A program made the position numbers and the translations under genes. A DNA stretch of 64,000 bases from Flaccisagitta enflata (Eukaryota). Shown here in pieces: positions 15,730 to 64,000 of the stretch. Numbering within the stretch: position 1 is the first letter of the stretch; each line of letters starts with the position of its first letter. Under the pieces are notes generated by a model. It was not told the DNA's origin. It did not search any database and was given only the letters and a program-made list of their open reading frames with translations. The stretch is taken from the NCBI GenBank assembly GCA_965153355.1, contig OZ231126.1, positions 32,426,001-32,490,000 of the forward strand, read 5' to 3'.

Positions 15730-17698
15730 AGTAGAGTGACTACTCAGGGTGCCGCCTGTGGCCCCTATAATAAATGTCATTGAGATGCCGGTTGTTGACG
15801 ATTTTGGCGATCTCAGATTCGCTGAGATTGTCTGAGGGAGAGGATTTTGGTCGCCATTACTCACAACCAACAGAGAACAATATGATACATGCAAGTTAAA
15901 TACATTCGATATGCCTCAACCAACTTCGTCCAATTTCCACGTCAGTATTTTGATATCAATTTCTAAATTCATGTATGACAAAATGAAAGAGCTTGTACAG
16001 CAAATATTGTGTAAAAGGGCAAATTCATGTGGGAGGGAGTGGGAGGTAGTCAGGATGCAAAAGGGCTAAGGCGATGAGGCAAAATCTGCTCGAGTATCTC
16101 GAAACAGCCGATCCTTTCGTACCTATCATGGCCATTCTTTCGCCCATTGGCGTTACCCGAAGAATCAACTCAATTCAAAATCAGAGGGCAATTCTCATCC
16201 GCGCCGCGCTGACAGCTGTAGCCTCCCGTGAATGTCTGGACGCCACGGAAACAACAGTACCCACTCCGCAGCACAGTTCCTTGCTGAACAAAGGGGTAAA
16301 AATGCTGTGGCAATAGTGCCACTCGAAGTCACATCACGCTACACCTCACAATGTCACGCCAAAACACGCCACCAGCGCTACGCCGCCACATGCCACGCCA
16401 ATCCAAGTCACGCCAACAGAATCACGCCAATCCAAGCCACGCCAGCAGCATCACGCCAACAGGGGCGCCCGTCCGTTGAGGTGGAAAAGTCGTCCTTGCG
16501 CTGAAGGTAGAATCAATTCCACCTCCTCAGTCTGGTTTTTAGCCCCATTTCGAAAAAAGGGTAATCTCTCTTTTTCAATCTCTTTCTTTCTGTCTATCAC
16601 CGTTTCTATCTGTTAGTTTGTTTTACTGTCTCTCAATCTGGGATTCAGCTAGTTTTGACATAAAACTGTTTTCTTGACTGTGTCTCCGAGATATTCCGTG
16701 GCGTTCTACTTTAGCGTATTAAACCGCCAAAAATCGTTTCAAAAATACAAAAAAATGGATTATTGTGACAAAAATTATGAATTTTTGTCACAAAAATGCT
16801 GGAAAAGTCCATTTTGAAACGGGCGTTCTTATGCAGTTTCAAAACGATCTTATATTGTCGTTTCAAAACCACAAGTATGCGCAACTTTTGAAACGAATAT
16901 TGAGGCATAGTTGACATATCAAAACTTAGCAATTCTAAAGTTCTAAAACCATGAGATTTTTGCGTTTCAAAACGCTTGAAAACAGCGCTAAAGTAACGGC
17001 CAGCAAGGGAAAAAATCTATTCATCTTTGTAATCTTATCACCTTTTTTACCGTTTTGAAAACACAAAAAATTAAAGTATTGAAACTGAAAAAAAATGTGT
17101 TTAAAAATTGAAATATGGTTATATGCTAGCTGACTTTACCCAAACTGACTGGCTTATACGCACGCCACTCTTGGTTTTCCATAACACTGAAACTGAAAGA
17201 CATCCTTTTGGGCAGCAGCTCCGAAGGGGTTGATGACCTATGCTTTTACACATGGGGAGTTTTCTCCTCAAATTACAGTCTTGAGGCCCAAATTTTAGCC
17301 TGAAGGCCCAAATCCTTGCCTGGAGGCCCAGATCCCCGCCTTGAAGCCCAAATCTTAGCCTCGAGGTCCCAATCCCACCCAAGAGACCCAGATCCCAACC
17401 TCAAAACTCTGAAAGAGGCTTAGTCTGTCTGTCCTCCATCGGTTCATCCATTATGCTTGAGTTAAAAGTGCAAAAATGCACATTCTTAAATGAAATTGCA
17501 GTTGTGATAATCTCTTTGTGTGTTTGTGCCAAAAAGGTTACTTTTTACAGTTTTGAAACTGCAAAAAAATTGAAGTTTTGAAACTGCAAAAAAATGAAGT
17601 TTTGAAACTGCAAAAAAATGAAGTTTTGAAACTGCAAAAAAATGAAGTTTTGGAACTGCAAAAAATTGAAGTTCTGAAACCGCAAGAAATTGAAGCTA

Positions 17699-17805
17699 AG
17701 AAATACGGAGTTTCTCATAGAGAAAGAATCGAGATACGCGTCGCGTCACTTGTAAACAGAGTTACGAACACAGGCTCATATTCATTCAGCGTACTTATGT
17801 CTAAC
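17699..17805 (+). repeat. Split direct repeat A1 (left terminus)
   Basis: 107 bp, identical to 18839-18945 except one base (17759 g vs 18899 a). Confidence 0.97.
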
Positions 17806-17883
17806 CCGATAGCACGCAAAATTTCCAGTCCAAGAAAAACTCGATTTCAGTTAAACAGAAATTCGATCTCGCAAACACTCGTC

Positions 17884-19180
17884 ATGAGTGGCAAAGAAAC
17901 CGATGCAAATAAAAGGAAAGCGGGTAACTCGTCAAAGGACGAGGATGAGCCGGACTGGAGAGAAGAAATGCGTGCTGAGTTAAAGTCGTGCATCGCTTCC
18001 GCGCTAAATACGAGCGTCTCCGCGGCCGTCAATACTGCGGTGGAGGCGGCTATGGCTAGGCAGCCGTTCAATCTCCCTTTGGGCCCGTCGGAGATTGATG
18101 CTGAAGACGTCGTGGATAAGGAATCTTCCGAATCGATGGCGGACCTGATGAAGAAAATCGATGCCGGCAATCGTTCGAATAAAATAGCAATTCGCTTGGC
18201 GGCTATCTCCAAAGAGGGAAACAAGCAGCATTTCATGGACATGATTGAGATTAAAGAGAAACTGGAATGCGCCGAAGCCGCTCTCAAGGAGAGTACTGTA
18301 GATTTATACAAAAAAAAAAAAAAAAAAAAAAAGTTTAAGCTTAAGCTTATGCGAGTTTGTACAGGTTTGTGTGAGCTCACGTAGGAGCGCGTGATTGAAC
18401 AATCTTTTCTACTAGGATCCGCGGTTTTTGGAGGACGTTGACCTTGCTCGGGAGGCCGTCGCCGACTCAATGAAACTCGTGGAAGCGCGGATGTCCATGA
18501 TTGAACGCATCGACAAACATCCTCTGAGCTGGCCAGTCGCCACCGAGTATCAGAAGCTGAAACGCGCACGATCCGATGACTCGGAAGACGACAAAATTTT
18601 CGCGGCCGCGGAAAAGAAAGTGAAAGACGAACGGAAGGCCAAAAACGATGAAGCCAAATCAAAGACTCAGACGAAACAGAGAATCACGTTTCAGTCTCGT
18701 CAGTCATTTGGAGGGTCGGGTAATGTTAATCGGTACTTGTTATAGTCCGCATCATTTTGTTTGCTTTGTTGGTTCAGGTACGCTGCTACTATGAAATGAG
18801 ATTCTTGATTCATGAGAAACTACGGTTTCTAGCGAGCGAGAAATACGGAGTTTCTCATAGAGAAAGAATCGAGATACGCGTCGCGTCACTTGTAAACAAA
18901 GTTACGAACACAGGCTCATATTCATTCAGCGTACTTATGTCTAACAATAACCCACCCACCCACCCCAGGCATCTCTCAGCGGCCCTTTCCCAGTCAGGTA
19001 CTCGCAACTGACCAATGCTCGTACTGCGGACTCACCGGTCATTGGAAAAAGCAATGCTACCGCTTCAATAACGACATGCGCGGTCGGGGACAGAGGTCTC
19101 TCGGACAATCGAAATTTGCCGCCACCGGCTCCAGCAAAGACACCGCTCTTACGCAGAACGCAACAGCATACACGCAATGA
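17884..19180 (+). CDS. gag: Gag-like protein with C-terminal CCHC zinc knuckle; predicted exons 17884-18297, 18416-18719, 18969-19180
   Basis: MSGKETDANKRK...ALKEST | DPRFLEDVDL...QSFGGSG | ISQRPFPSQVLATDQCSYCGLTGHWKKQC...AYTQ*. CX2CX4HX4C starts at 19016 and is not in the ORF track. The joins restore frame. The first donor (GTAGAT) is weak. Confidence 0.75.
18778..18945 (+). repeat. Internal B1-A2 junction (copy of the circle junction)
   Basis: B1 18778-18843 matches 23253-23318 with one mismatch. A2 18839-18945 matches A1. They overlap at AGAAA. Confidence 0.97.
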
Positions 19181-21986
19181 GACAGATGTCTCTACTAAAG
19201 CCCGAGCCTCAGAGAAGGAGAGGGTGCGAACAAAATATGATGACATATTTCAAGTAAGTGACAGTTGTCACAAATTCGGCTCTTATGACATTGATAATGT
19301 CAGCGATGATTTTTCAGTGGCAGGCAGACTATCGAATCCCAAATATATCAGTTTTTTTGAAGAAATAGGTGCCTCAGAGGTGATTTTAGACACTTTGAAA
19401 CACGGTCACAAGCCAATTCTAACATCAGATGTGCCAAGTTATGAGAGAGAGAATAACAACTCATTTAAAGAACACTGCGAGTTTGGCGTAAACACCATTC
19501 TAAAGCTTATAAAAGACAAAAAAGTTGAAATTGTATCCAAAAAGCCTAAAATTGTCAATCCTCTGTCCGTTGCTGTCCAACCAACAAAATTACGGCTAAT
19601 TCTGGACTGTAGTTTCCTCAACAAATTCATAGCAGCTCCGACTTTCAAAATGGATGACCACAAAACTGCCCTCTCTTTCTTTGATCTTGACGGCTATCTC
19701 TTCTCTTTTGACATGAAAGACGGATACCATCATCTGTTAATTCACCCTGACTTTCGCGATTACCTTGGTTTCAAATTTAAGCTCAACGGACGGACCTACT
19801 ATGCTCGCTATCTCGTCGCGCCCTTTGGTCTGTGCGATGTCCCATACACATTTACAAAAATTCTCCGCCCCCTTGTGGCACACTGGAGGAGGTTAGGAAT
19901 CAAGATCTGTCTCTTTCTGGATGACGGTTTTTCTTCTTCCCGAGACAAAGCAAAAGCTCAAAGAGACAGTGTTCATGTCAGACAAGACTTGATGAGAGCG
20001 GGAATAGTCTGGAATGTAAAAAAGTCTAATTGGGAGCCAACTAAATCCCTTGAGTGGGTCGGCTTTTACTGGGACACAACTGACGGATCAATGAAAATCA
20101 AAGGCAGAAGAGTCGAAAAACTAAAACTTTTTCTGTCTGAGATGTCCGCACTCAAATCATGCACAGCTCGCAAATTAGCAGCGCTAGTCGGTCAAATCAT
20201 CTCCATGATGCCAGTAATTGGTGACGTGGCAAGGCTAAAAACAAGAAATTGTCAAATTGCCGTGGCCTTAGCAAATGACTGGGACGAGACTGTGTTACTA
20301 AACAATGGGATAAAGACCGAGATTCTCTTTTGGCAGCAGAATATTGACAGACTGAATATCTACTACTGTTTTCAATCGGACGGACCTGTCGTCTTTGATC
20401 TGATCGAAGGTGATGCTTCAGCGTCAGGTTGCGGTAGCATTCTAAATGACAGCATGATTGCGGCACAGTGTTTTAACGCTCTTGAAAGGGCTCAAAGCTC
20501 AGCATACAGAGAGATATCCAATATTCATTTTTCCCTTGTGTCATTCCTTGCCAACATAAAGGGTAGATCGGTGACAGTCAAAACTGATAGTCAAGCCGCG
20601 GCAAAGATTTGCAAAATTGGCAGCATGAATCCCCTTCTGCAGCATTTTGCTGAAAGCATATTTGAGCTGTGTTTTAAGAATAATATTAATCTCACTGTAG
20701 ACTGGGTCCCACGCAATGAGAACCAAAAGGCAGATTTGATATCCAGATTGGCTGACAGGGTTGATGTAGACGACTGGCAAATCTCCCAAGAATTTTTCAA
20801 AATTCTCAATGAGAAATGGGGCCCCTTTTCTATTGATTTATTCGCCAATCACTATAACGCAAAATGCGAAAAATTTTATTCTCTCTTTTTCTCTCCTCTA
20901 AGTCATGGGGTGGACGCATTTGCTCATAGTTGGGTTGGGGAAGTCGCCCTCATGGTTCCCCCTATCTCTCTCATCCCACGGGCCCTGTCACAGCAGCTGG
21001 TTATCCTATAATTCTTACGATCCTAGATTTGTGGCTTAGAAGGGTTACAATTGTAGGTTTTCAAGACTCTTTTACAATGGGAAAATGGGTTTTTCCTTCA
21101 TAACCCATAAAGTGCTAAATCGATTTTTTTTTATTTCTTGGGTCAATATCAATAATGAGACTACTTACCTTTGCCAAAAGAAATTGTCATCGCCACTCTT
21201 CTATAAATGGGTGGAATATGATGATGAAAGTGGCCTTCTACAATGCTTACGATTCTAGGTTTTTTTGCTTAGAAAGCTTACGATTCTAGAAACTTGCATG
21301 GAAAGCTTATGATTATAGGTCTTCTGTGATTCATTACCCACAGGTTAGTTCATGGATTAGTAGGCCCTAATTTCAGAGACAGAAATACTTGTGTGCATGG
21401 CATCAGGCTTTTTCACAATATTGCTCCTAGAATTGTAAGCTTTCTATGCAAGTTTCTAGAATTGTAAGCTTTCTAAGAAAGAAAACCTAGAATTGTAAGC
21501 ATTGTAGAAAGCCACTTTCATCATCATATTTCACCTATATATAGAAAAGTGGCGATGACAATTTCTTATGGCAAAGGTAAGTAGTCTCATTGTTAATATT
21601 GACCCAAGAAATGAAAAAAATCGATTTAGCACTTTTTGGGTTATGAAGGAAAGACCCATTTTCCCATTGTAAACAAGTCTAGAAAACCTACAATCGTAAC
21701 CGTTCTAACCCACAAATCTAGGATCGTAAGAATTATAGGATAACCGGCTGCACAGGCCAAGCTTTGTGGAATAAATTGCACTCTGGTCATTCCCCTCTGG
21801 ACCTCATCCTGTTTCTGGCCAGTCATTCTCAACGATTACACCTCATTTATCTCAGATCTCCTGAGAGTGAAAGGTTCTAAAGTTCTCCTCCATGGTAGAA
21901 ATACTAATAGCATTTTTGGTTCAGGCAGCTTTCAAGGGGAAATTCTAGCAATTAATTTTGATTTCACTGGATCCACTCACAGATAA
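18969..21986 (+). pseudogene. pol: pol: reverse transcriptase + RNase H + DAM-type methyltransferase-like domain, interrupted by a MITE at 20994-21750
   Basis: RT motifs LRLILDC, SFDMKDGYHH, APFGL, FLDDG; RNase H GDASASG, SSAYRE, KTDS, NQKADLISR; MT-like IDLFA..N.K, DAFAHSW, VPP. Removing the MITE restores RALSQ|AKLCGINCTLVIPLWTSSCFWP...THR* (stop 21984-21986). Confidence 0.92.
20994..21750. mobile_element. MITE with ~325-bp TIRs inserted in pol
   Basis: cagctggttatcctataattcttacgatcctag...ctaggatcgtaagaattataggataaccggctg; CACAG duplicated at 20989-20993 and 21751-21755. Confidence 0.95.
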
Positions 21987-22963
21987 TTCGTGAGCAAGAC
22001 TTTTGGAAAACGCAGCCTCAGAGTTACTCTTGCGTTATTGATGACATTTGGGAGTCGCTACAGCCTAGTACAACCGAAAAGTATTGTATATGCATGAGAA
22101 ATTTTTGCTCTTTCAGTTTAATCAATTCAGGTGAGATCACTTTGCCTATTGACACAGATAATGCATCCAAATTTCTGGTTTTCCTAAGGGAGCGCGGCTA
22201 CTCAAAATTCTACATAAAGCTAGGCTTGGTCGCCCTGAAGTGGGCCAATTCATTTTTTCCCAGAGCTTAATCCCTTAATGAGCCATTTCTTGACAGAATC
22301 ATTGCCAGTGCTAATCGCAATATTATCTCGTCAAAAAACCAAAAGGTCCCTCTAACCAAGTCAATGGTAGCTTCCATTCTTAATCTCAAGAATAATGCAA
22401 GTCTTAGCGAAGTTAGAGACTCTCTTATCCCAGCTCTGAGCTTCTCCCTCTTGCTTCGTAATGACGAATTAAGACACTTGTCATGTGCTCACATTGAAAA
22501 AAGAGAGGAGGGGATGATTTTCCGAATTGTATCGTCAAAGACAGATGTCTTCAGAAAAGGGAAAAGTCTGTATCTGGCAGATTCTAACGACTCAAAATCT
22601 CTTGTCTCGCTCCTCCTCAAATACATGTCACTAGGGGAGATTCCCCTGGGATCAAACAATTTTCTCTTTGGTGAAATAAGGAAAAATTCATCTAATGATA
22701 AAGAGTATGTAGACGGCACTTCTAAATTATCCTATAGCCAGTGCCTATCAATAATCAGATCCAAGGTCGCGTTATTAGGCCTAAACTCAAACTTGTTTGG
22801 TACTCATTCTGCCAGATCGGGCGGCGCGACGACGCTTGCCACGAAGGTCACGCCATTCGAGCTGATGCTCAGTGGGCGTTGGGCAGATGCCCGTTCACTA
22901 CGGAACTACGTTGAAGTTTCGGACAAAAGAAGATTTGAAATTTCTGAAAATCTTCTGAGCTAG
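21962..22963 (+). pseudogene. Tyrosine recombinase (YR) with one premature TAA at 22268-22270
   Basis: Frame open from 21962 (..SLQPSTTEKY..F..F..) apart from one stop; catalytic set LLRNDE (R), SSKTD (K), THSARSGGAT (H-x-x-R), GRW, RNYV (Y). Confidence 0.92.
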
Positions 22964-23245
22964 GTATCTTGAAAAGATACGCTGATTTGAGTCTGACAAT
23001 CGTTTTCGGTCACAATTGGTTCAGATACACACTTAATTTTCATTTTCCTCTCACAGTCGTGTTCATTTGTTTATGTTCCTTGGTGGATCCGAAGAGTTCT
23101 CATCTTGTCGTCCTATGAAGATGTCAAGTCGGATGCTTTGTAGACCTGGTGGAGCTCTAAAGATCACCCTTTAACTAGAAAGATATCCTTTCCATTTTGT
23201 CATGAAAAATGAAAAATGCTCCTAACCCGTTGCGGTCATAGACAC

Positions 23246-23251
23246 AATAAA
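23246..23251 (+). promoter_or_regulatory. Putative polyadenylation signal of the retrotransposon
   Basis: AATAAA immediately upstream of B2. Confidence 0.5.
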
Positions 23252-23252
23252 C

Positions 23253-23318
23253 GTACGCTGCTACTATGAAATGAGATTCTTGATTCATGAGAAACTACGG
23301 TTTCTAGCGAGTGAGAAA
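23253..23318 (+). repeat. Split direct repeat B2 (right terminus)
   Basis: gtacgctgctactatgaaatgagattc...tttctagcgagtgagaaa; 66 bp, one mismatch to B1. Confidence 0.97.
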
Positions 23319-23604
23319 CGGCTATTTCATATTTCATAATTTCATTGCCACTTTTTCCCAGTTCCAAAACAGTAAAAACTAGCTGGCTTGAAGTGAGAAA
23401 AAAATGATATTTTAGACAAAAGCCCTTTTTATGCAGTTTTGATACACCCAAAAAAAGCCGTTTTAAGACGGCAAGTATGCCTGCGTCTTGAAACTCCAGA
23501 TAACTGCCACTAAAGGACATTGTTGTATGCATAAATGGTTTTTTGGCCGTTCTGAAACTGTTGCATACTAGAAGTTTTGAGACGTCGTTCCCCTATTTGG
23601 GACA
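23319..23604. mobile_element. AT-rich repeat hosting the retrotransposon (right part; left part ~17530-17698)
   Basis: Reverse complement of ~63580-63950 resembles both flanks (ttttacagtt..gaaactgcaaaaaaa on the left, ...gacgtcgttcccctatttgggac on the right). Confidence 0.65.
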
Positions 23605-23796
23605 AAAACGCAATAAGAACGCCGACGAAATACCTGGTGTCTCCCACATCATCATTTTGTCTATCTGTCCGTCTGTTGTAAGTTAGCTGCATTGTTTTTC
23701 TGTTTTTGTGGGTTGTTTTTTTCTTTTTTTTTTGATCCGTTTAATTCTTCGATTATTTCTCAATTGTATGTTGGCTCGTCTGTTTGTTAAGTTATA

Positions 23797-23860
<64 letters not shown>

Positions 23861-24302
23861 TGGGGAGGTCCACTCATACTTTCAAGCAGAAATTTGACAG
23901 GAAAGTTCTTTTTTTTTTCTAATCACAACCTAATTAATTCTCGGACTCAACTTCCTTTATTTCTTTCTTTTCCAAATTCTGCTATTCTTTCTGTTCTCTT
24001 CCTTTCTTCATCCTCTTTCTTTCCAGCTTTCTCTTCTTTCCTCGTTATTCTTTCTTTTTTATCACCTTTTTTTTTCTCCTTTCTTTCCCCTCCTTACCCA
24101 CTTTTGACTGACTTTTCCTTTTTTTTTTCCATTCCATTTTCCCAAGGAACTGGGCAAAATCATGCCTTGCAGTGAAGCTACCATATTGCCAATTTAGAAA
24201 TAGCTACAAAATCTCTCAAAGGACTGTAGGCCTTAAAGGCAGGCACGCCTAAAAGTCAGGTGCGCTCTAGTGGTGTTCTACTGTAATTTTTTTCACTGGT
24301 CA

Positions 24303-24519
24303 TTTTTAGTCGCGTGCTACGCGACTATACAACCCGCTTTGTCGGTCCGTCCATCGGTCCGTCGGTCCGTCGGTCCGTCCGTCCGTCCGTCACACTTTAC
24401 TTTTTTTGGGTTTTTGCGGTATTTGGCTTCACTGCTCCTGCCCAAATGATGGAGGGACCTAAATTATGGCGCCTGCCCACCCGCACGCGACTGGGGTAGC
24501 CATGTATCCGGCCTTGTTC
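24303..24519 (+). mobile_element. Family B HINE-like element, reference copy
   Basis: tttttagtcgcgtgctacgcgact hairpin, (GTCC/GTCG)n tract, subterminal gcacgcgact, end tatccggccttgtt. Related copies at 6470, 26407, 28803, 32645, 39030, 41045, 42046, 42280, 53914. Confidence 0.75.
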
Positions 24520-25039
24520 TTTTCCCTCCTCCCTCAACTTTTCCCGCCCGTTTCCCTTTTTTCTTTTCCGGGCATTTTTGCATGTTTTGTGTCGCCTTTG
24601 GAATTTTTCCTCCTTCATTTCATTTTTTTTCTCCTTCATTTCATTTTTTTTCCTTCATTTCATTTTTTTTTCTTTTTCGCATGATCGCCATTTTCTGGTC
24701 CACATTTTACTTCTTAGAGACCAAAACGTCTACTGATGCCCGCTGGTCTGTCTCATGAAGATGTCTGTCATTGTACTGAAACTATGCATGAGGTGGCATC
24801 ATATTGTTTTAGATTCTCTGCGCTCCGATCCGCCTCTATGATAATTACGCGCTCTTTTACGCCAGATTACTCTAACGCACCGACCAGGCACAGAGATCTC
24901 TCCACGTCAGATACACAGATTCATAACTCAAACATGTCCCCTTCGCCTTGAGGCCTCGATAAAAATCCATCTATTTCTCTACCCCGACTAGATATAAGCC
25001 AAGTTTCAATTTGCACATCTTTTAACCGTGAAACCGGCT

Positions 25040-25790
25040 CGAGGTTGGGTGGATGTAATTGGATGACAGTGCGTGATGAGTGAGGTGAGTGTTGTTGGAT
25101 GGTAATACGTGGAAGGTCGGGTGGGTGTTGTTGGATGACAGTGCGTGATGAGTGAGGTGTGTGTTGTTGGATGGTAATACGTGGAAGGTCGGGTGGGTGT
25201 TGTTGGATGACAGTGCGTGATGAGTGAGGCGAGTGTTGTTGGATGGTAATAAGTGGAAGGTCGGGTGGTTGTAATTGGATGACAGTGCGTGATGAGTGAG
25301 GTGAGTGTTGTTGGATGGTAATACGTGGAAGGTCGGGTGGGTGTTGTTGGATGACAGTGCGTGATGAGTGAGGTGTGTGTTGTTAGATGGTAATACGTGG
25401 AAGGTCGGGTGGGTGTTGTTGGATGACAGTGCGTGATGAGTGAGGTGAGTGTTGTTGGATGGTATTACGTGGAAGGTCGGGTGGGTGTTGTTGGATGACA
25501 GTGCGTGATGAGTGAGGTGAGTGTTGTTGGATGGTAATACGTGGAAGGTCGGGTGGTTGTAATTGGATGACAGTGCGTGATGAGTGAGGTGAGTGTTGTT
25601 GGATGGTAATACGTGGAAGGTCGGGTGGGTGTTGTTGGATGACAGTGCGTGATGAGTGAGGTGAGTGTTGTTGGATGGTAGTAAGTGGAAGGTCGGGTGG
25701 GTGTTATTGGATGACAGTGCGTGATGAGTGAGGTGAGTGTTGTTGGATGGTATTACGTGGGAGGTCGGGTGGGTGTTGTCGGATGACATT
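25040..25790. repeat. 72-bp minisatellite built from two related 36-bp subunits, ~10 copies
   Basis: Alternating gttggatgacagtgcgtgatgagtgaggtgagtgtt / gttggatggtaatacgtggaaggtcgggtgggtgtt. Confidence 0.95.
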
Positions 25791-26236
25791 GTGTCGAGGC
25801 CCTCGACTCGAGGGTGAGATGGGCGTCATTAGATGGAGGTGAGTGGACGATCGGTTGGAGTTATTAGATGACAATGCTTGGAGTATTCAGAGAATGTTCT
25901 TGGATGGCAGTGAGTGGTCATCATGAAATGTGCTTGGGTGAGTGCCTGTCACAAGGGTGACAAATTCAGTGACCATGACGATAATTGTAAAGATCACGAA
26001 ATCATGATCTACTGGGTCAATGTCTATGACAAGGGTGACGAATTCAATGACCATGGTGATAATTATAATGATGACAATATCATGATCAAGTGAGTGAGTG
26101 CCTATGACATGAGTGACCATGACGATGATTGTTATGATCACAACATCATGATAAAGATGGCGGTCGAAGTGGACTGAGAAGGTAAGGAGGGGAGTGCACT
26201 GGGAATTAATCGCAAAATGCATAAATTCTCAATTCT

Positions 26237-26314
<78 letters not shown>

Positions 26315-26801
26315 CAATCGTTGCGTTGGGTTTTTGTTATGCAAATTAGATTTTTAAAATGAAATCTTAACTCGAGAAATCTTTCCGTGGAAAATGATAA
26401 GGAAAATAAGGCCGGATACACGGCAATCCAGTCGCGGACGGCTGGGCAGGAGCAGTAATGTGAAAACCACTCAGAAGTCAAAAATGTGACCTACCGAACG
26501 ACCGACCTACCGACCTACCGACCGACCGACACGGCAAGGTGTAGCGTCGCGTGTCCGCGACTAAAAACCGAAAACTCACAACAAATAAAATGGCGCGTTA
26601 TCCCCTTTTCTTTCTTTTTCTGTTTTCTGGAATCATTTCATTTTGTGACCGTTTTTTTTCAGTGTCTTTGCGCAGTCTTTCTGTTACTTTCGGTCACTGA
26701 CTCACTGTGTAGTCTCTCTGTCTCTTTTTGCGTTTGTTTCTCGGTCTGACTTTCGTTGTCGTTATCCGTCCCTTTCTGTCTTTATTCGTCCGTCTGTAGA
26801 G

Positions 26802-26838
<37 letters not shown>

Positions 26839-26968
26839 AACTGGGTATTTTTTTCCCATTTCCAATGCCTGCGAGTCTCTCACACTATCTGCACAAATCC
26901 TCTATTTCTCCTCTTCCACTGACATGATAGAGATAGGTAGAAAAGTTACTGGGGAGCAAGGGCAAGTC

Positions 26969-27076
<108 letters not shown>

Positions 27077-28059
27077 TTAGAGATGCCAACAGACTGACAG
27101 AGGCTGTTTTAGACAGAGGTACAAATCAAGACAGACCGTCATACAGACAGAATGTTCAAAAGATACATAGACAGATAGATATTCTGAAAAACAAACAGAA
27201 AGAAAGTTCAGAGAGAAAGATGATGGAAGAGCTAAATTCTAAAAGAAGACACGCTAAAAAAACCTCAAGCCTCGAGCCAACGTTTCATCACCGGTGATAC
27301 TAGGAAAGGGAAAAGACAAACATTTTCTAATATACTCTATATTTCTATTTACGGCCTCACAAAAGCTTACACATAATGATATATCCCCATCAACTCTGCC
27401 GACATTTGCTCCCAGTAACAAACGCAGACTAGACTGTTGAGAAAGGTAAAAGGAGGAACTTACCCACGTGTAGTTGTAACTATTTTACGCGACTCTCTCA
27501 ACACGACTGTTTCATATCAAAGTTCCATGTTCTAGAACAGCTTTTTCTCGTTTTCTTCTCAGGTTTAACTAGCAATGAACTAGCTACAGAGAGAATGAGC
27601 ATAAACCACGCTGATAGTTGGTAGTTCAATACCAGTCCTTGGTACAAACATTTTGGATATGAAGTGAAGCACCGATATAGCGCTAATTAAGTCATCCCCG
27701 CCCACAAAGCGTTGCCTCTAAAAGTCCATGTCGTTTTTTCTACACAGAAAACAAGTCAACTTCGCTTTAAACCATCGTTTGTCCACTGATGACGAACATG
27801 GAATACTCAACTCTGGTAAAAGCGTACTTGTACTTAGAATTTGAAGTTTTGTCAAACTCTGATAATAATTTGTACGCTGGCTTGCTACCCTATCTTTTCT
27901 ATATTGAGTCAAACTTCTCATAACCCTCCCTCCCCCTCCTACCTCCCCCACCCCCACCCCCACCCCCAACCTTCATGCCGAACAGTGGTCGTAAATCTCC
28001 TCCATTTGTGCTCAACATCAGCTCAACCCTAGACCTAACTTTTTTCAAGCAAGTTGACA

Positions 28060-28118
<59 letters not shown>

Positions 28119-28401
28119 ATCCAATAAATGCAACATATTTCAACCGCTATTTTTTTTTATTTCATTTTCTTCTGTCTTCCTTCTTCCTTCTTCTTCTTCT
28201 TCTTCTTCTTCTTCTTCTTCTTCTTCTTCTTCTTCTTCTTCTTCTTCTTCTTCTTCTTTTTCCATCTCAACCTCATCTTCCCGCTGATGTTGGCATATCA
28301 AATGCGCAACTTGACTCAAGCTCTACCTGACGGCCATCGCGGAATATGAAATGATGATGTGATGAGGGTGACAACCATGAGGAAGAAAGAGACAGACAGA
28401 A

Positions 28402-28629
<228 letters not shown>

Positions 28630-29377
28630 AACTCTGTCCCCATCTTTTTTTGTGTCATTGCTTTTACTTTACCACTCTTTCCTCGTAATGTTGGGCAAAA
28701 CAGCACAGAAATTCAGAAAAAAAAGCAAAAAGCAAAGTGAAAAAAATTGAAAGTAGAAAGCTGATTGAGAACAGTTGAATACCACTCGGAATTTAGAAAT
28801 GTTACCGACCTACTGACCTACCAACCTACCTACCGACCGACACGGCAAGGTGTAGAGTAGCGTGTCCGCGACTAAAAAGCTAAAAGAAGAAAGCTGAATG
28901 AGGAAAGCTGTATGAGGAAGGCCGGATGAGAAAAACTGAATGAGAAAAACTGAATGAGAAAAGCTGAATGAAAAAGCTTGACAAGATAAGCTGAATGAGA
29001 AAAGCTTAACGAGAAAAGCTCACTGAGAAAAGCTGAAAGAAGAAAGCTGAATGAGAAAAGCTGTATGAGGAAAGCTGGATGACATAAGTTGAATGAGATC
29101 TACGGATTTTTTGAGCCTTCCACGGCATCTGCATCGAAATATTTTACTTGCTTATGCTGAAATACATTACATTACATTACATTTCAAAAACTGAATGAGA
29201 AAACTGAATGAGAAAAGCTAAGAGCGGAAAGCAGAATGAGAACTGCTGAATGAGAAAAGTGAGTGTAACTGAAAGTGACCAAAACCAATAAAGGAAATCT
29301 GAAGAGACTCATGACTGAAAGGGGAATGTTCCGAAAAAAAAAAGAGTTGAGAAAGACACTACCAATACCATTCAATG

Positions 29378-29449
<72 letters not shown>

Positions 29450-29601
29450 ACAGTCTGTCAGAGACAGTCTGTCAGAGACAGAGAAAGTCCACTGGGAATG
29501 TTTCACAAATTCATTTTGTCGTTCGCTTTTACCGGTCGCGCGGTCTTGTCTCACCATCAATAAGATGTGGTATCTCCGGCCTGGATTTTAGGAACGACTG
29601 G

Positions 29602-30220
29602 ATATGACGCACTGAAAAATACCATAGAATTTGCTACCCGAGCTAGATAAATCATGAAATTTATAAAATGAAATTTAATGATAATTTTTGTTTTTATGTT
29701 TTCAATTAAACTGTCAACAGCCATATTTTGCATGAATCGACTTGCATATGCCAGTTTTAAACTCCAATCCTTTAATTTTGAGCTGAAAAAATATGCAAAA
29801 TACAATAAAAAACTTCTTTTGTCAATGTACCATGGCTCATTGAAAATTTTAAATTTGCATAGAAAATCAAAATATCAACAAAACAAAAACATAGCGCGAT
29901 TCCTATAACATATGCTGAGGGCGCTATGTTCTTATTTTAATGATATTTGGATTTTTTATGCAAATTTAAAATTTTCAATGAGCAGTTTCTGAAATGATTG
30001 TCACTATTTTTTTCACTTTTTAGTCTCATTAAAATCGAATTTCCTTCAATCTTTTTGCATTTTTGTCATTTGACAGAAACAGTTCGGTTTCCTCATGTAA
30101 GTTTATACATTTCATTACAAAAAAATAAACACAAGCATTGACGTAAGCAAAAATAGTGAAGTGAATGGTAACTTTGTCCTCTGGGTAAGTTCCTCTTACT
30201 TTAATTTCAGTGCGTCATAT
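29602..30220. mobile_element. Putative non-autonomous DNA transposon with 16-bp TIR
   Basis: atatgacgcactgaaa ... tttcagtgcgtcatat, AT-rich interior with an internal inverted repeat. Confidence 0.6.
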
Positions 30221-30610
30221 GAACAATGACTCTTTTAGGAATAAGTAAGCAGAACACGGTTAGAGACGCCAAGTCAGGGACAAGTGGTCAGAATAAGTGT
30301 TATACAGGTAGGTTGACTTGCTAATTGTTATCCTGGCCACTGTTCCATTTTAAAACAAATTCCCAACTCAGCATGAACATCATTGAAGAACTTCTCTACC
30401 TCAAGGGCGCCTAAAATGATTGAGAACCAAGTGGTCTGAGACTGTGAATGAGACTGGGAATGAGGCAAAGACTGAAACTGAATGTGAAACTGATAGTAAA
30501 ATATAGAACGAGACTGATGCTAACATAAATACTGAGCCTGAAACCAAGACCAAAAAAGTGCCAAGACTGACTTTGAGACTTGAGATTAAGACACAAAGTT
30601 ATACTGAAGC

Positions 30611-30693
<83 letters not shown>

Positions 30694-31327
30694 AAGAGAG
30701 ACGGAGCGACTAAGAGAACGAGAGAGAAAGAGAAACTGGAGAGACGGTGAGTCCAATAGATAAGAGACACATAAGAGATACAGACACAGACAGCTTGACA
30801 TCTTTGGAAAGACAGAGGATCACAGACGCAAAGAGACAATGAGAAAGATATTTGGAATTATAAGTTTCAGGGTGAATAAGGGAAATGGTAAGAAACATGA
30901 CGAGTGACGACAAAGGGAACCTCTCCATCTCAATTCTGACACCTCTTTATCTGAAATCTTGACATTTCTATTTCTTCATGACTTCTTGTCACCTTTTTTA
31001 TCCTCATAACTGAATTTTTTTTCCACGCGTTCCCACTCGCGACAGTGACTGTGATAGAGATGGAAAATTCGAAATGAACCTTTCATGAAAAATACCGACT
31101 TTCAAGTGGCGTGTATGATACGCTTTCGTCTATAGTCAATAGCCAATTCTGTCGCTGCCCATTGCCCTCTTGCATGATATAGCTTCGCTATTTTGGGCGG
31201 TCATCATCACAGTCTCATGTATCTTCCGGTCCATCAATGACTTAGGTACGTAGCTCTTTTGCATTTTGTGGTTGCAAATGTGTGCAAGTTGTGCAACTGT
31301 GATTAACAAATTTAGCATGAAGATATA

Positions 31328-35366: not shown

Positions 35367-35530
35367 CTTAGTGCGACTTTCTCACTGGAGGGAATTTTTT
35401 CTCACTAAAATTCCCTCCAGTGAGATTATTTTTTTGTCTCACTAAAGGGAATTTTAGTGAGAAAAAATTCCCTCCAGTGAGACTACCAATTTTCCCTCTA
35501 GTGAGACTAATTTTTCCCTTTAGTGAGAAA
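35367..35530. repeat. Short palindromic foldback-like repeat (tctcactggagggaattt / aaattccctccagtgaga); second copy 48840-49025
   Basis: Several direct and inverted copies of the motif at both loci. Confidence 0.7.
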
Positions 35531-61513: not shown

Positions 61514-62027
61514 ACAGGTCGCCCAAGGGCAATACGTGATCAGCGATACCCGTTGCCCTGCTTTGCATGGTTGTAAATCGGAATGAGAGGCAGGGCAGCG
61601 AAGGGGACGAAGTCCTGTAGAACACAGGGGACTGCTGCTCCGTTGTCTCCGTCCATCCATCCGTCCGCCTCCCAGGCCCTCTCAGGCCTGAAACATGTCC
61701 TCTAAAGCCTAAAATCTGCCTTTCAGGCCTGGAAATCTGCCTCCTCTCAGGCCTTAAATCTGAGGGATTTTAGGCCTGGGAGGGCAGATTTTAGGCCTGA
61801 GGGGACAAGTTTCAGGCCTGAAAGGGCAAATTTTAGGCCTCTGAGGGCAGATTCAAGGCCTGAGAGGGCAGATTTCAGGCCTGAGAGGGCAGATTTCAGG
61901 CCTGAGAGGGCAGATTTCAGGCCTGAGAGGGACGAACGAATGGATGGACGAACGGACGGACGGACGAACGAACGAAAGTCCCCTGTGTTCTACAGGACTT
62001 CATCCCCTTCGGAGCCGCTGCCCAAAA
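61514..62027 (+). mobile_element. Family A element with two inverted 21-bp satellite arms
   Basis: aacaggtcgcccaagggcaata start; IR gtcctgtagaacacagggg / cccctgtgttctacaggac; ends gccgctgcccaaaaa. Confidence 0.75.
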
Positions 62028-63120: not shown

Positions 63121-64000
63121 GAGCAGCGTTCAGAGTTTGAATGAAAGAGAGATGACGGGCAGATGTTCGTAATTTGCATATATTTTGTTGTACGAGTTTC
63201 GCTCTCTTAGTCTGTGTCGTGTGAGTGCGCGTGTCCGGGCACGTTATCCACTCATGGATTATTTCGCGGAAAGTGAACTCATTTTAAGGAATGTACACTC
63301 ATGGCTTTTGTTAACCTTGTTTGTATTGGTATGTTGCGTTTTCAAAAAAGGATGTGGAAGTGGCCCAAATCTCAGCCTCAAGGCCCATATCCTAGCCACT
63401 AGGCCCAAATCCCAGCCTCGAGGCCCAAATCTAGCCTTGAGGCTCAAATTTCAGCATTAAGTCCCCAATACCAATTGCTAGAAGGAGGAGGAGAAAGAGG
63501 ACGAGGAGAAAATTCCTCATAGGTGTAAAAGCATAGGTCATCGACCCAGTTATTCCGTTGGCGTTATTATGGCATAATCGTCCCAAATAGGGGAACGACG
63601 TATCAAAACTCCTAGTATGCAGCAGTATCAAAACGTCCAAAAAACCATTTAAGCATACAACAACGTCCTTTTGTGGTTGTAATCTGGAGTTTCAAAACGC
63701 AGGCATAGTTGCCGTTTTGAAACCGCGTTTTTTGGGAGTATCAAAACTGCATAAAAAGGGGTTTTGAAAACATGACTAAAATAACATTTCTTTTTCACTT
63801 CTAGCCAGTTTTTTTTTGGCATTTTAAAAACTTGATAGAAATGCTTTTTTAACACGTGGTGATAGTGCAGTTTCAAAACTGAATATGAACGCGGTTTCAA
63901 AACTTAATTTTTTTGCAGTTTCTGAACTGTAAAAAATAAGCTTTTTGTAACGTCCTTCAAAGTAGTAAAACATTACACATTTACACAGCAAATTTACATA

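Follow-up and report, generated by a model that had tools for sequence, protein, structure and literature searches.

A palindrome at the internal end-to-end junction of a PAT-like retrotransposon: a candidate att-like site with an off-centre crossover

The 64,000-nucleotide (nt) stretch of Flaccisagitta enflata contig OZ231126.1 analysed here (assembly GCA_965153355.1, positions 32,426,001 to 32,490,000; referred to below as the window) contains a retrotransposon on the + strand whose right end and left end meet, within the element itself, in an imperfect palindrome. A preliminary description of this DNA had read the palindrome as a lox-like site for a tyrosine recombinase. Judged from its sequence, the element is a PAT-like retrotransposon of the DIRS order, because it combines a reverse transcriptase (RT), a methyltransferase (MT) and a tyrosine recombinase with split direct repeats in the arrangement A1...B1A2...B2. 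The part of PMC4157794 that defines the PAT type names the MT domain and split direct repeats within the DIRS order.

The left terminal repeat A1 (17699-17805, + strand) starts with AGAAATACGGAGTTTCTCAT, the right arm of the palindrome, and ends at ATG TCT AAC, the start of the first open reading frame (ORF1). Its internal copy A2 (18839-18945, + strand) is 99% identical to it over 107 nt and likewise ends at ATG TCT AAC, here the start of ORF2. The right terminal repeat B2 (23253-23318, + strand) consists of the left arm, then AGCGAGTG, then AGAAA, and its internal copy B1 (18778-18838, + strand) holds the left arm and the centre of the palindrome, AGCGAGCG. Compared over 66 nt (18778-18843 against 23253-23318), the two B copies are 98.5% identical, with a single difference (18837 versus 23312). 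B1 abuts A2 at 18838/18839, and B homology runs five letters, AGAAA, into the start of A; these 5 nt are shared by both element ends. The start borne by the A repeat, MSN... (17797-17805 and 18937-18945), opens both ORF1 and ORF2. Since the A repeat ends in this start, A-ORF1-B and A-pol-B each resemble an independent unit with A and B as its borders.

ORF1 (17797-18745, + strand) occupies the gag position, and its frame breaks between 18384 and 18416, downstream of an A-rich run; no Pfam family was found in its protein. The ORF2 region (18896-21011, + strand) encodes, by Pfam and translation, a zinc knuckle, an RT, an RNase H-like domain and the start of a Dam-like MT. Pfam on 18951-21011 gave RVT_1 at 2.5e-12, Dam at 2e-6 (at the cut-off, 28.1 bits) and RVT_3 at 0.002 (below the cut-off), and the CX2CX4HX4C knuckle (18896-19180) lies downstream of A2 in a frame that differs from those of both ORF1 and pol. 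A 762-nt foldback insertion resembling a miniature inverted-repeat transposable element (20989-21750) interrupts the MT domain in this copy only. After it come the remainder of the pol ORF and the tyrosine recombinase (21744-22963, + strand), with an in-frame stop at 22268-22270 and the catalytic domain at 22271-22960. A Pfam search of the recombinase region gave no match, and phmmer matched the catalytic domain to Cre (E = 1.3e-5, residues 39-218 on Cre 155-335). The motifs LLRNDEL, SSKTDV, HSARSGG, GRW and RNYV align with Cre active-site positions. Because of the foldback insertion, the ORF1 frame break and the stop at 22268-22270, the window copy is dead. All contigs over 22268, from three DNA runs, differ there from the window, so open recombinase copies probably exist in the sampled populations.

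The palindrome is built around AGCGAGCG (18831-18838). The letters given for it in the preliminary description, ATGAGAAACTACGGTTTCT at 18812-18830 and AGAAATACGGAGTTTCTCAT at 18839-18858 on the two sides of this centre, are correct, and these arms are inverted repeats, but 'near-perfect' was a generous term for them, with 17 matches, two mismatches and one indel in 20 columns. The outer symmetry GATTCTT/AAGAATC that had also been noticed is real, and it extends the palindrome to a left arm of 18800-18830 and a right arm of 18839-18870. At this full length, arms of 31 and 32 nt flank the centre, with 25 of 32 columns complementary and one indel; a repeat search of the site returned arms of 25 nt with 80% complementarity. 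The left arm holds a mini-palindrome of GAGAAA (18814-18819), CTACGG and TTTCTA (18826-18831), and the right arm holds a second one, our proposed core, of GAGAAA (18838-18843), TACGGAG (18844-18850) and TTTCTC (18851-18856).

As single-stranded DNA, the 75-mer 18798-18872 folds into a hairpin with AGCGAGCG as its loop, at -17.1 kcal/mol on the + strand (z = -6.3, reached by 0 of 200 shuffles) and at -14.2 kcal/mol on the - strand (z = -4.8). With spacers of 6-8 nt, equal-scoring palindromes occur at three places in the window (18831, 35428 and 61760), and 30 first-order Markov simulations of the window gave none at the site's own score. The other two span 35394-35468 and 61726-61800. Allowing at most three mismatches, the arm pattern matches the window four times, each time at one of A1, B1, A2 and B2, against 0.51 matches expected. 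None of the contig differences from the window, among the 40 listed, falls in 18800-18870, which carries no weight as evidence of conservation. Contigs of RNA run X12 cover 17826-18284 and the foldback insertion, and none lies at the junction, which says nothing on the expression of the site.

The relation of the palindrome to the element ends had been described correctly: the left arm with AGCGAGCG is the right end and the right arm is the left end, and the A1/A2 and B1/B2 matches agree with this. The further claim that the full site forms only at a junction stands in that the palindrome spans the end-to-end junction, but this junction is also permanent, as B1-A2, in every integrated copy.

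Contigs that lack the element locate the point at which the junction is opened. A joint from 17698 to 23314, with five letters fitting both sides, is present in one contig each of runs X3 and X4, and a joint from 17599 through CTA to 23314 in one contig each of runs X1 and X4. From these joints, the target before insertion read ...GAAGCTA AGAAA CGGCTATTTCAT..., and they show no target-site duplication. They agree with what the repeat boundaries show independently, and together the two place the exchange within or at the border of AGAAA, 18839-18844. AGAAA (18839-18843) is common to the B2 end, the A1 start and the element-free target, which gives a crossover interval from 18838/18839 to 18843/18844, and the window's right-end point reads ...GAGAAA|TACGGAGTTTCTCAT, in the right arm. 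The centre AGCGAGCG lies outside the exchange region and goes with the element's right end; the eight letters before A1, TGAAGCTA, match it at one of eight positions by manual comparison. At the right end of the integrated element, a hybrid site (23287-23331) joins the left arm and centre of the element to a target half, AGAAA-CGGCTA-TTTCAT, that is complementary to the left arm at 11 of 15 positions. A search of the window for the 24-mer predicted for the element-free state gave no match, and a paralogue of the flanking host repeat (63500-64000) lacks ~32 nt and 60 nt around the insertion point, gaps that make it uninformative on the target.

Relatives of the element carry comparable sites. 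At E <= 0.001 the pol ORF has 104 relatives, nearly all in ENA metagenome contigs and up to 69% identical over most of the ORF (63-69% for P0001-P0015); no pol relative was found in the viral contigs searched. A scan of metagenome contigs with a 24-sequence alignment yielded 403 stretches encoding pol relatives, from which we kept 80 loci (labelled L below) whose pol is 32-42% identical to that of the window. Where such loci have repeated B and A segments, the repeated stretch holds a palindrome of like build.

An alignment of 16 distinct junction sites (pairwise identity 0.44-0.90) was used to examine structure and conservation. RNAalifold alone predicts an inner helix with compensatory changes in its pairs. 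In a structure of 20 pairs, composed of an outer helix, a bulge, an inner helix and an apical two-pair stem, 87.2% of 313 cells are paired, as compared with 74.3% after shuffling (0 of 500 shuffles) and 37-53% when the partner is slid. Changes on both sides are seen in 12 of the 20 pairs, in 42 cells that are not independent events, and several pairs take three to six pair types. Column identity is 0.83 in the centre, 0.72-0.79 in the arms and 0.49-0.58 in the flanks, so that the centre, 17-22 nt long in relatives, is the most conserved part of the site; this reverses the pattern of conserved arms and variable spacer for which the preliminary description had proposed to look. A covariance model detects the site in 43 of the 80 loci at E <= 0.01, including the 16 training sites. 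The conserved centre reads GAGC-GNA-GCGAATTAG or GAAC-GNA-GTGA... (L011, L014, L020, L023, L029, L033, L039, L004 and L080), and in many relatives it forms a two-pair stem closing a GNA triloop, with 11 GC and 4 AT pairs at columns 40/48. This mini-hairpin is missing from the window and from L040, L041, L060 and L062. The GNA motif resembles d(GCGAAGC), a very stable DNA mini-hairpin.

To map where relatives are opened, each family's junction was aligned to all loci and an end was placed where homology stops. By a manual row count, 9-10 families yielded distinct ends numbering ~25 on the right and ~28 on the left. The ~53 ends lie inside one arm, 11-30 nt from the centre, with five right-end outliers, and none lies in the centre. 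They adjoin a conserved A-run/ATGTATTTTC box inside that arm, and the right-end point falls between the A-run and the conserved ATG[T/G/A]ATTT(T)C box that follows it. In L004, L014, L020, L029, L041 and L046 the ends are in the right arm, after the A-run that ends the inner box, as in ...GAAGGAAA|ATGTATTTTCC and ...AATGAAA|ATGTATTTTCTA, and the box that follows the end point is ATG[T/A]ATTTTC, or ACATATTTTG in L046. The same motif is used in the left arm in L061 and L062, as ...GACAAAAT|ATGGTATTTCTA. Left-arm use is seen in two related families (L061, L062, L045, L049, L050, L052, L056, L069, L075 and L078), whose left end takes in the centre together with the entire right arm, the mirror image of the window's arrangement.

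The right-end point is constant in most families (+18 three times in L004; -25, -25, -24 and -25 in L062; +17, +18 and +17 in L020). Left ends of relatives vary by 0-5 A-rich letters common to the target, again with no duplication. The crossover adjoins a conserved irregularity of the stem, which is a bulged G in AAAT-G-TATTTT (L004, L014, L020, L029 and L039), GG/AA in L062 and TA in the window. Core-like symmetry around the mapped crossover is clear in L020, as GAAGGAAA-ATGTAT-TTTCCTTC (8-6-8), and L033, for which no ends were mapped, shows the symmetry only, as GGAAAT-AATGACA-ATTTCC (6-7-6). Over their first 15 positions, the right flanks of relatives agree with the A arm at ~39% (manual count), too near the AT-rich background to indicate a preference for pseudo-sites.

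Some contigs of the relatives have unusual arrangements. Several (L004, L023, L046 and L062) run from B into A at their ends and may be tandems, circles or assembly artefacts, as may the L020 contig, which runs into a second copy at 90% identity. In L001-L006 and L050, several contigs read flank|A-pol-YR-B|flank, where YR is the tyrosine recombinase, without an internal B-A junction or an ORF1 module; L004 reads A-pol-B-A-X-B-A. The contigs without the ORF1 module could be single-module derivatives, like solo long terminal repeats, or assembly paths that skip a repeat-bounded loop. ORF1 has one weak relative only among the loci (L011, 35% over 79 residues, E = 9e-4), which leaves a circularly permuted module order in relatives unproven.

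The reading we prefer, with a probability of about 0.55, is that the palindrome is an att-like junction site with an off-centre crossover and a duplex core in its right arm; the junction site and the off-centre crossover are the firmer part of it. It would be the internal, B1-A2 copy of the circle-junction region, in which the right end (B) joined to the left end (A) brings the 31/32-nt imperfect inverted repeats together in a palindrome able to form a hairpin. Short inverted elements around 6-8 nt, with exchange at the border, are the usual core geometry of tyrosine recombinases. The core would be the right-arm mini-palindrome GAGAAA-TACGGAG-TTTCTC (6-7-6), which the recombinase is predicted to bind as duplex DNA, with the top strand exchanged at the left edge of the 7-nt overlap. 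Integration would open the junction off-centre, just 3' of AGAAA (18843|18844) and at the inner edge of the right arm, so that AGCGAGCG would travel with the right end. The target carried a look-alike of the core, AAGAAA-CGGCTA-TTTCAT, and the second core-like copy in the left arm, 24 nt upstream, may serve as an accessory or alternative site. In this reading the anatomy, the end points, the covariation and the homology of the recombinase are observed; binding, the positions of cleavage and the duplex or folded state of the substrate are inferred.

The internal copy would keep the junction in every integrated element, and transcripts lacking the extreme ends could regenerate it. Passages of PMC3266345 and PMC7192593 give a model of DIRS transposition in which the ends are regenerated from an internal copy of the circle junction, and the circle recombines with the target at a 3-bp junction sequence without duplication. 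This model accounts for the position of the site, and in that respect the earlier reading of a donor (att) site for the recombinase holds. The palindrome at the end junction, the Cre-like recombinase and the covariation also favour that reading, but the lox geometry attached to it, with the arms as sole binding elements, is not supported: exchange inside the 8-bp spacer is contradicted by the crossover at 18839-18844 and by relatives' ends that never lie in the centre.

Several observations weigh against the reading of a duplex core in the right arm. Other copies of a high-copy repeat, matched at 88% likeness, are the source of the element-free joints, and three of the four joints have sides shorter than 30 nt, a kind of joint that can be spurious; moreover, the window's own lineage contributed a single insertion. 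Mis-joins at the repeated A and B segments may affect the metagenome contigs, and among the mapped right ends there are outliers (-45 in L078, -38 in L023, -31 in L019, -48 in L021 and +12 in L014). The local 6-7-6 symmetry is weak in L014, L029 and L046, and the relatives' covariance model finds no match in the window at E <= 1, so that the window site is alike in architecture and not demonstrably homologous. A duplex core in one arm leaves the covariation of the whole palindrome unexplained, as well as the crossover beside a conserved stem irregularity. In addition, a passage in PMC7192593 calls recombinase specificity in the DIRS order untested.

These last structural points are what a folded single-strand site would explain. 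On this tentative alternative, the recombinase would act on a hairpin of the single-stranded complementary DNA (cDNA) junction, with the outer and inner helices as its binding boxes and the bulge between them as the exchange region, and one strand would be exchanged and replication would complete the product. The arms covary even as they diverge in sequence, the loop consists of the centre and the crossover lies in the arm beside the conserved irregularity; however, symmetric protein binding to duplex DNA would likewise keep the arms complementary. The GC-GNA-GC mini-hairpin with its GC-to-AT covariation in the relatives' centre also points to a fold, but that mini-hairpin is not general, as noted above, and the four AT pairs may stem from one evolutionary event. 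DIRS-1 cDNA is mostly linear and single-stranded according to a passage in PMC7192593; the same source reports it as antisense, but it is on the sense strand that the GNA loop is read. Target flanks share just 0-5 nt with the donor, as single-strand exchange would allow. Yet no strand signal emerges from the wobble count (11 G.T versus 6 A.C mismatches in 313 cells), and both strands of the window fold well. That the PAT-like lineage integrates through a bulged hairpin of the cDNA B-A junction, by one-strand exchange beside the bulge that host replication then completes, is a possibility we regard as doubtful.

Somewhat less probable still is a role in replication, in which the palindrome would serve reverse transcription or end-joining (priming, strand transfer, panhandle or packaging), the purine-rich stretch before the crossover would set the 5' end of A in the manner of a polypurine tract, and the recombinase would need few junction letters. 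The 15 nt before the crossover are ~70% purine (manual count; 15 of 15 in L020), an apparent and modest bias, and complementary termini could form a panhandle. Passages of PMC7192593 give the internal junction a templating role and report that deletion of the internal complementary region abolishes DIRS-1 retrotransposition downstream of first-strand synthesis. On the other hand, a right-end point that shifts by no more than +/-1 nt within several families, despite unrelated flanks, is expected of site-specific cleavage, and the recombinase would still need binding elements next to the crossover, where parts of the palindrome are the sole conserved symmetric elements. A simple loxP-like site, with two recombinase-binding arms and exchange of both strands inside AGCGAGCG, is highly improbable. 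It fits in form, with inverted arms around an 8-nt asymmetric centre, and Cre is the nearest solved relative of the recombinase, but AGCGAGCG is not common to the target and lies wholly on the right end, with TGAAGCTA in its place before A1; the 17-22 nt centre of relatives is too long for such a spacer and is their most conserved part; and the end points, none of ~53 in the centre, already contradict it.

The preferred reading of an att-like site with an off-centre crossover can be set beside known systems. The element resembles Pat1, Toc3, kangaroo and other PAT-like elements in its RT, RNase H, Dam-like MT and tyrosine recombinase, in its split direct repeats A1...B1A2...B2 and in the absence of target duplication. 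Its zinc knuckle may be a further likeness; the Pat1-like subgroup has a zinc-finger motif in Gag, and the knuckle of the window lies outside the ORF1 frame. It differs from them in that B1A2 lies between ORF1 and the pol ORF, just 1.1 kb from the left end, in that both ORFs start at one ATG within the A repeat, and in that inverted repeats of 31 nt at the ends make the junction palindromic.

With DIRS1-like termini it has in common that the joined ends make an inverted-repeat junction with an off-centre crossover and a few letters common to the target. Passages of PMC3266345 describe DIRS1-like elements as having inverted terminal repeats, a right or left extension (rE/lE) of 9-34 nt and an internal complementary region with a 3-bp circular junction. 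The unpaired extension corresponds to AGCGAGCG in the window, and the left-arm crossover of some relatives parallels the lE type. Unlike DIRS1-like repeats, however, those of the window are tiny (31/32 nt) and imperfect, the internal copy is direct rather than complementary and the overlap is 5 nt (AGAAA) rather than 3; with such ends and a direct internal copy, the element falls outside the DIRS1-like group.

The sites loxP (Cre), FRT (Flp) and dif (XerCD) consist of inverted elements around a spacer of 6-8 nt. The window site shares with them a Cre-like catalytic domain in its putative recombinase and, if the core is GAGAAA-TACGGAG-TTTCTC, inverted elements around 6-8 nt; the arms 18812-18830 and 18839-18858 around 8 nt have the lox/FRT form, in form only. 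It is unlike these sites in that exchange does not take place in the 8-nt centre, the half-sites measure ~6 nt, two core-like copies stand in tandem and the target lacks identity in the overlap region. The integron attC and CTX-phage attP(+) sites are imperfect palindromes that keep structure over sequence and have conserved crossover boxes with an extrahelical base nearby. Similarly, the junction sites here conserve shape rather than sequence, and their crossover lies in the stem and not at the symmetry centre, but they belong to a eukaryotic retroelement and no strand asymmetry was detected.

PMC3266345 and PMC7192593 contain passages that already describe the internal junction of DIRS-type elements as a copy of the circle junction used for integration. 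The element adds a new member to the PAT-like group, and its site is the known internal circle junction in a new form. We found no junction palindrome or hairpin for PAT-like or Ngaro elements in the literature searched, outside of which lie the founding papers of Goodwin, Poulter and Butler, and the string 'palindrom' occurs 0 times in PMC3266345, PMC8547959 and PMC6681497. A covarying hairpin with an off-centre crossover across marine families is likewise unmentioned in the literature searched, and a prior description is possible.

The route of integration in the DIRS order is not known to have been shown biochemically, and the literature searched offers a model of circle, 3-bp junction and recombinase. 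The present lineage provides a compact site of ~70 nt with a mapped crossover, two core-like mini-sites and a covarying hairpin, and its many natural variants in marine metagenomes are a ready-made mutational series. The site makes it testable where the recombinase cuts and whether its substrate is duplex or a folded single strand; the folded strand, if true, would explain arm covariation with a conserved loop, the in-arm crossover and the near-absent target homology. At a junction palindrome, exchange need not take place in the centre, however conspicuous that centre is.

The frame break in ORF1 comes directly after a run of AAG/AAA lysine codons (18330-18416) and could reflect a slippage-prone tract or a simple mutation. 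The foldback insertion has inverted-repeat arms of ~327 nt at 92% (20993-21319 / 21751-21426), and an insertion-free joint from 20988 to 21751, with five shared letters, is present in three DNA runs, with 2, 3 and 1 contigs. In run X1 the insertion reaches a word depth of 18,000-31,000, versus ~1,000 for the retrotransposon. The left flank of the element is a 27-nt tandem repeat within a very high-copy host repeat (17545-17698, + strand) that ends in ...GAAGCTA, with a word depth of 87,000-306,000 in run X1 versus 360-1,560 over the element. This host repeat, which contains the 27-nt minisatellite, flanks the retrotransposon at 17300-17698 and 23319-23700; the paralogue at 63500-64000 lies on the - strand, and many length variants of the repeat appear as contig joints.

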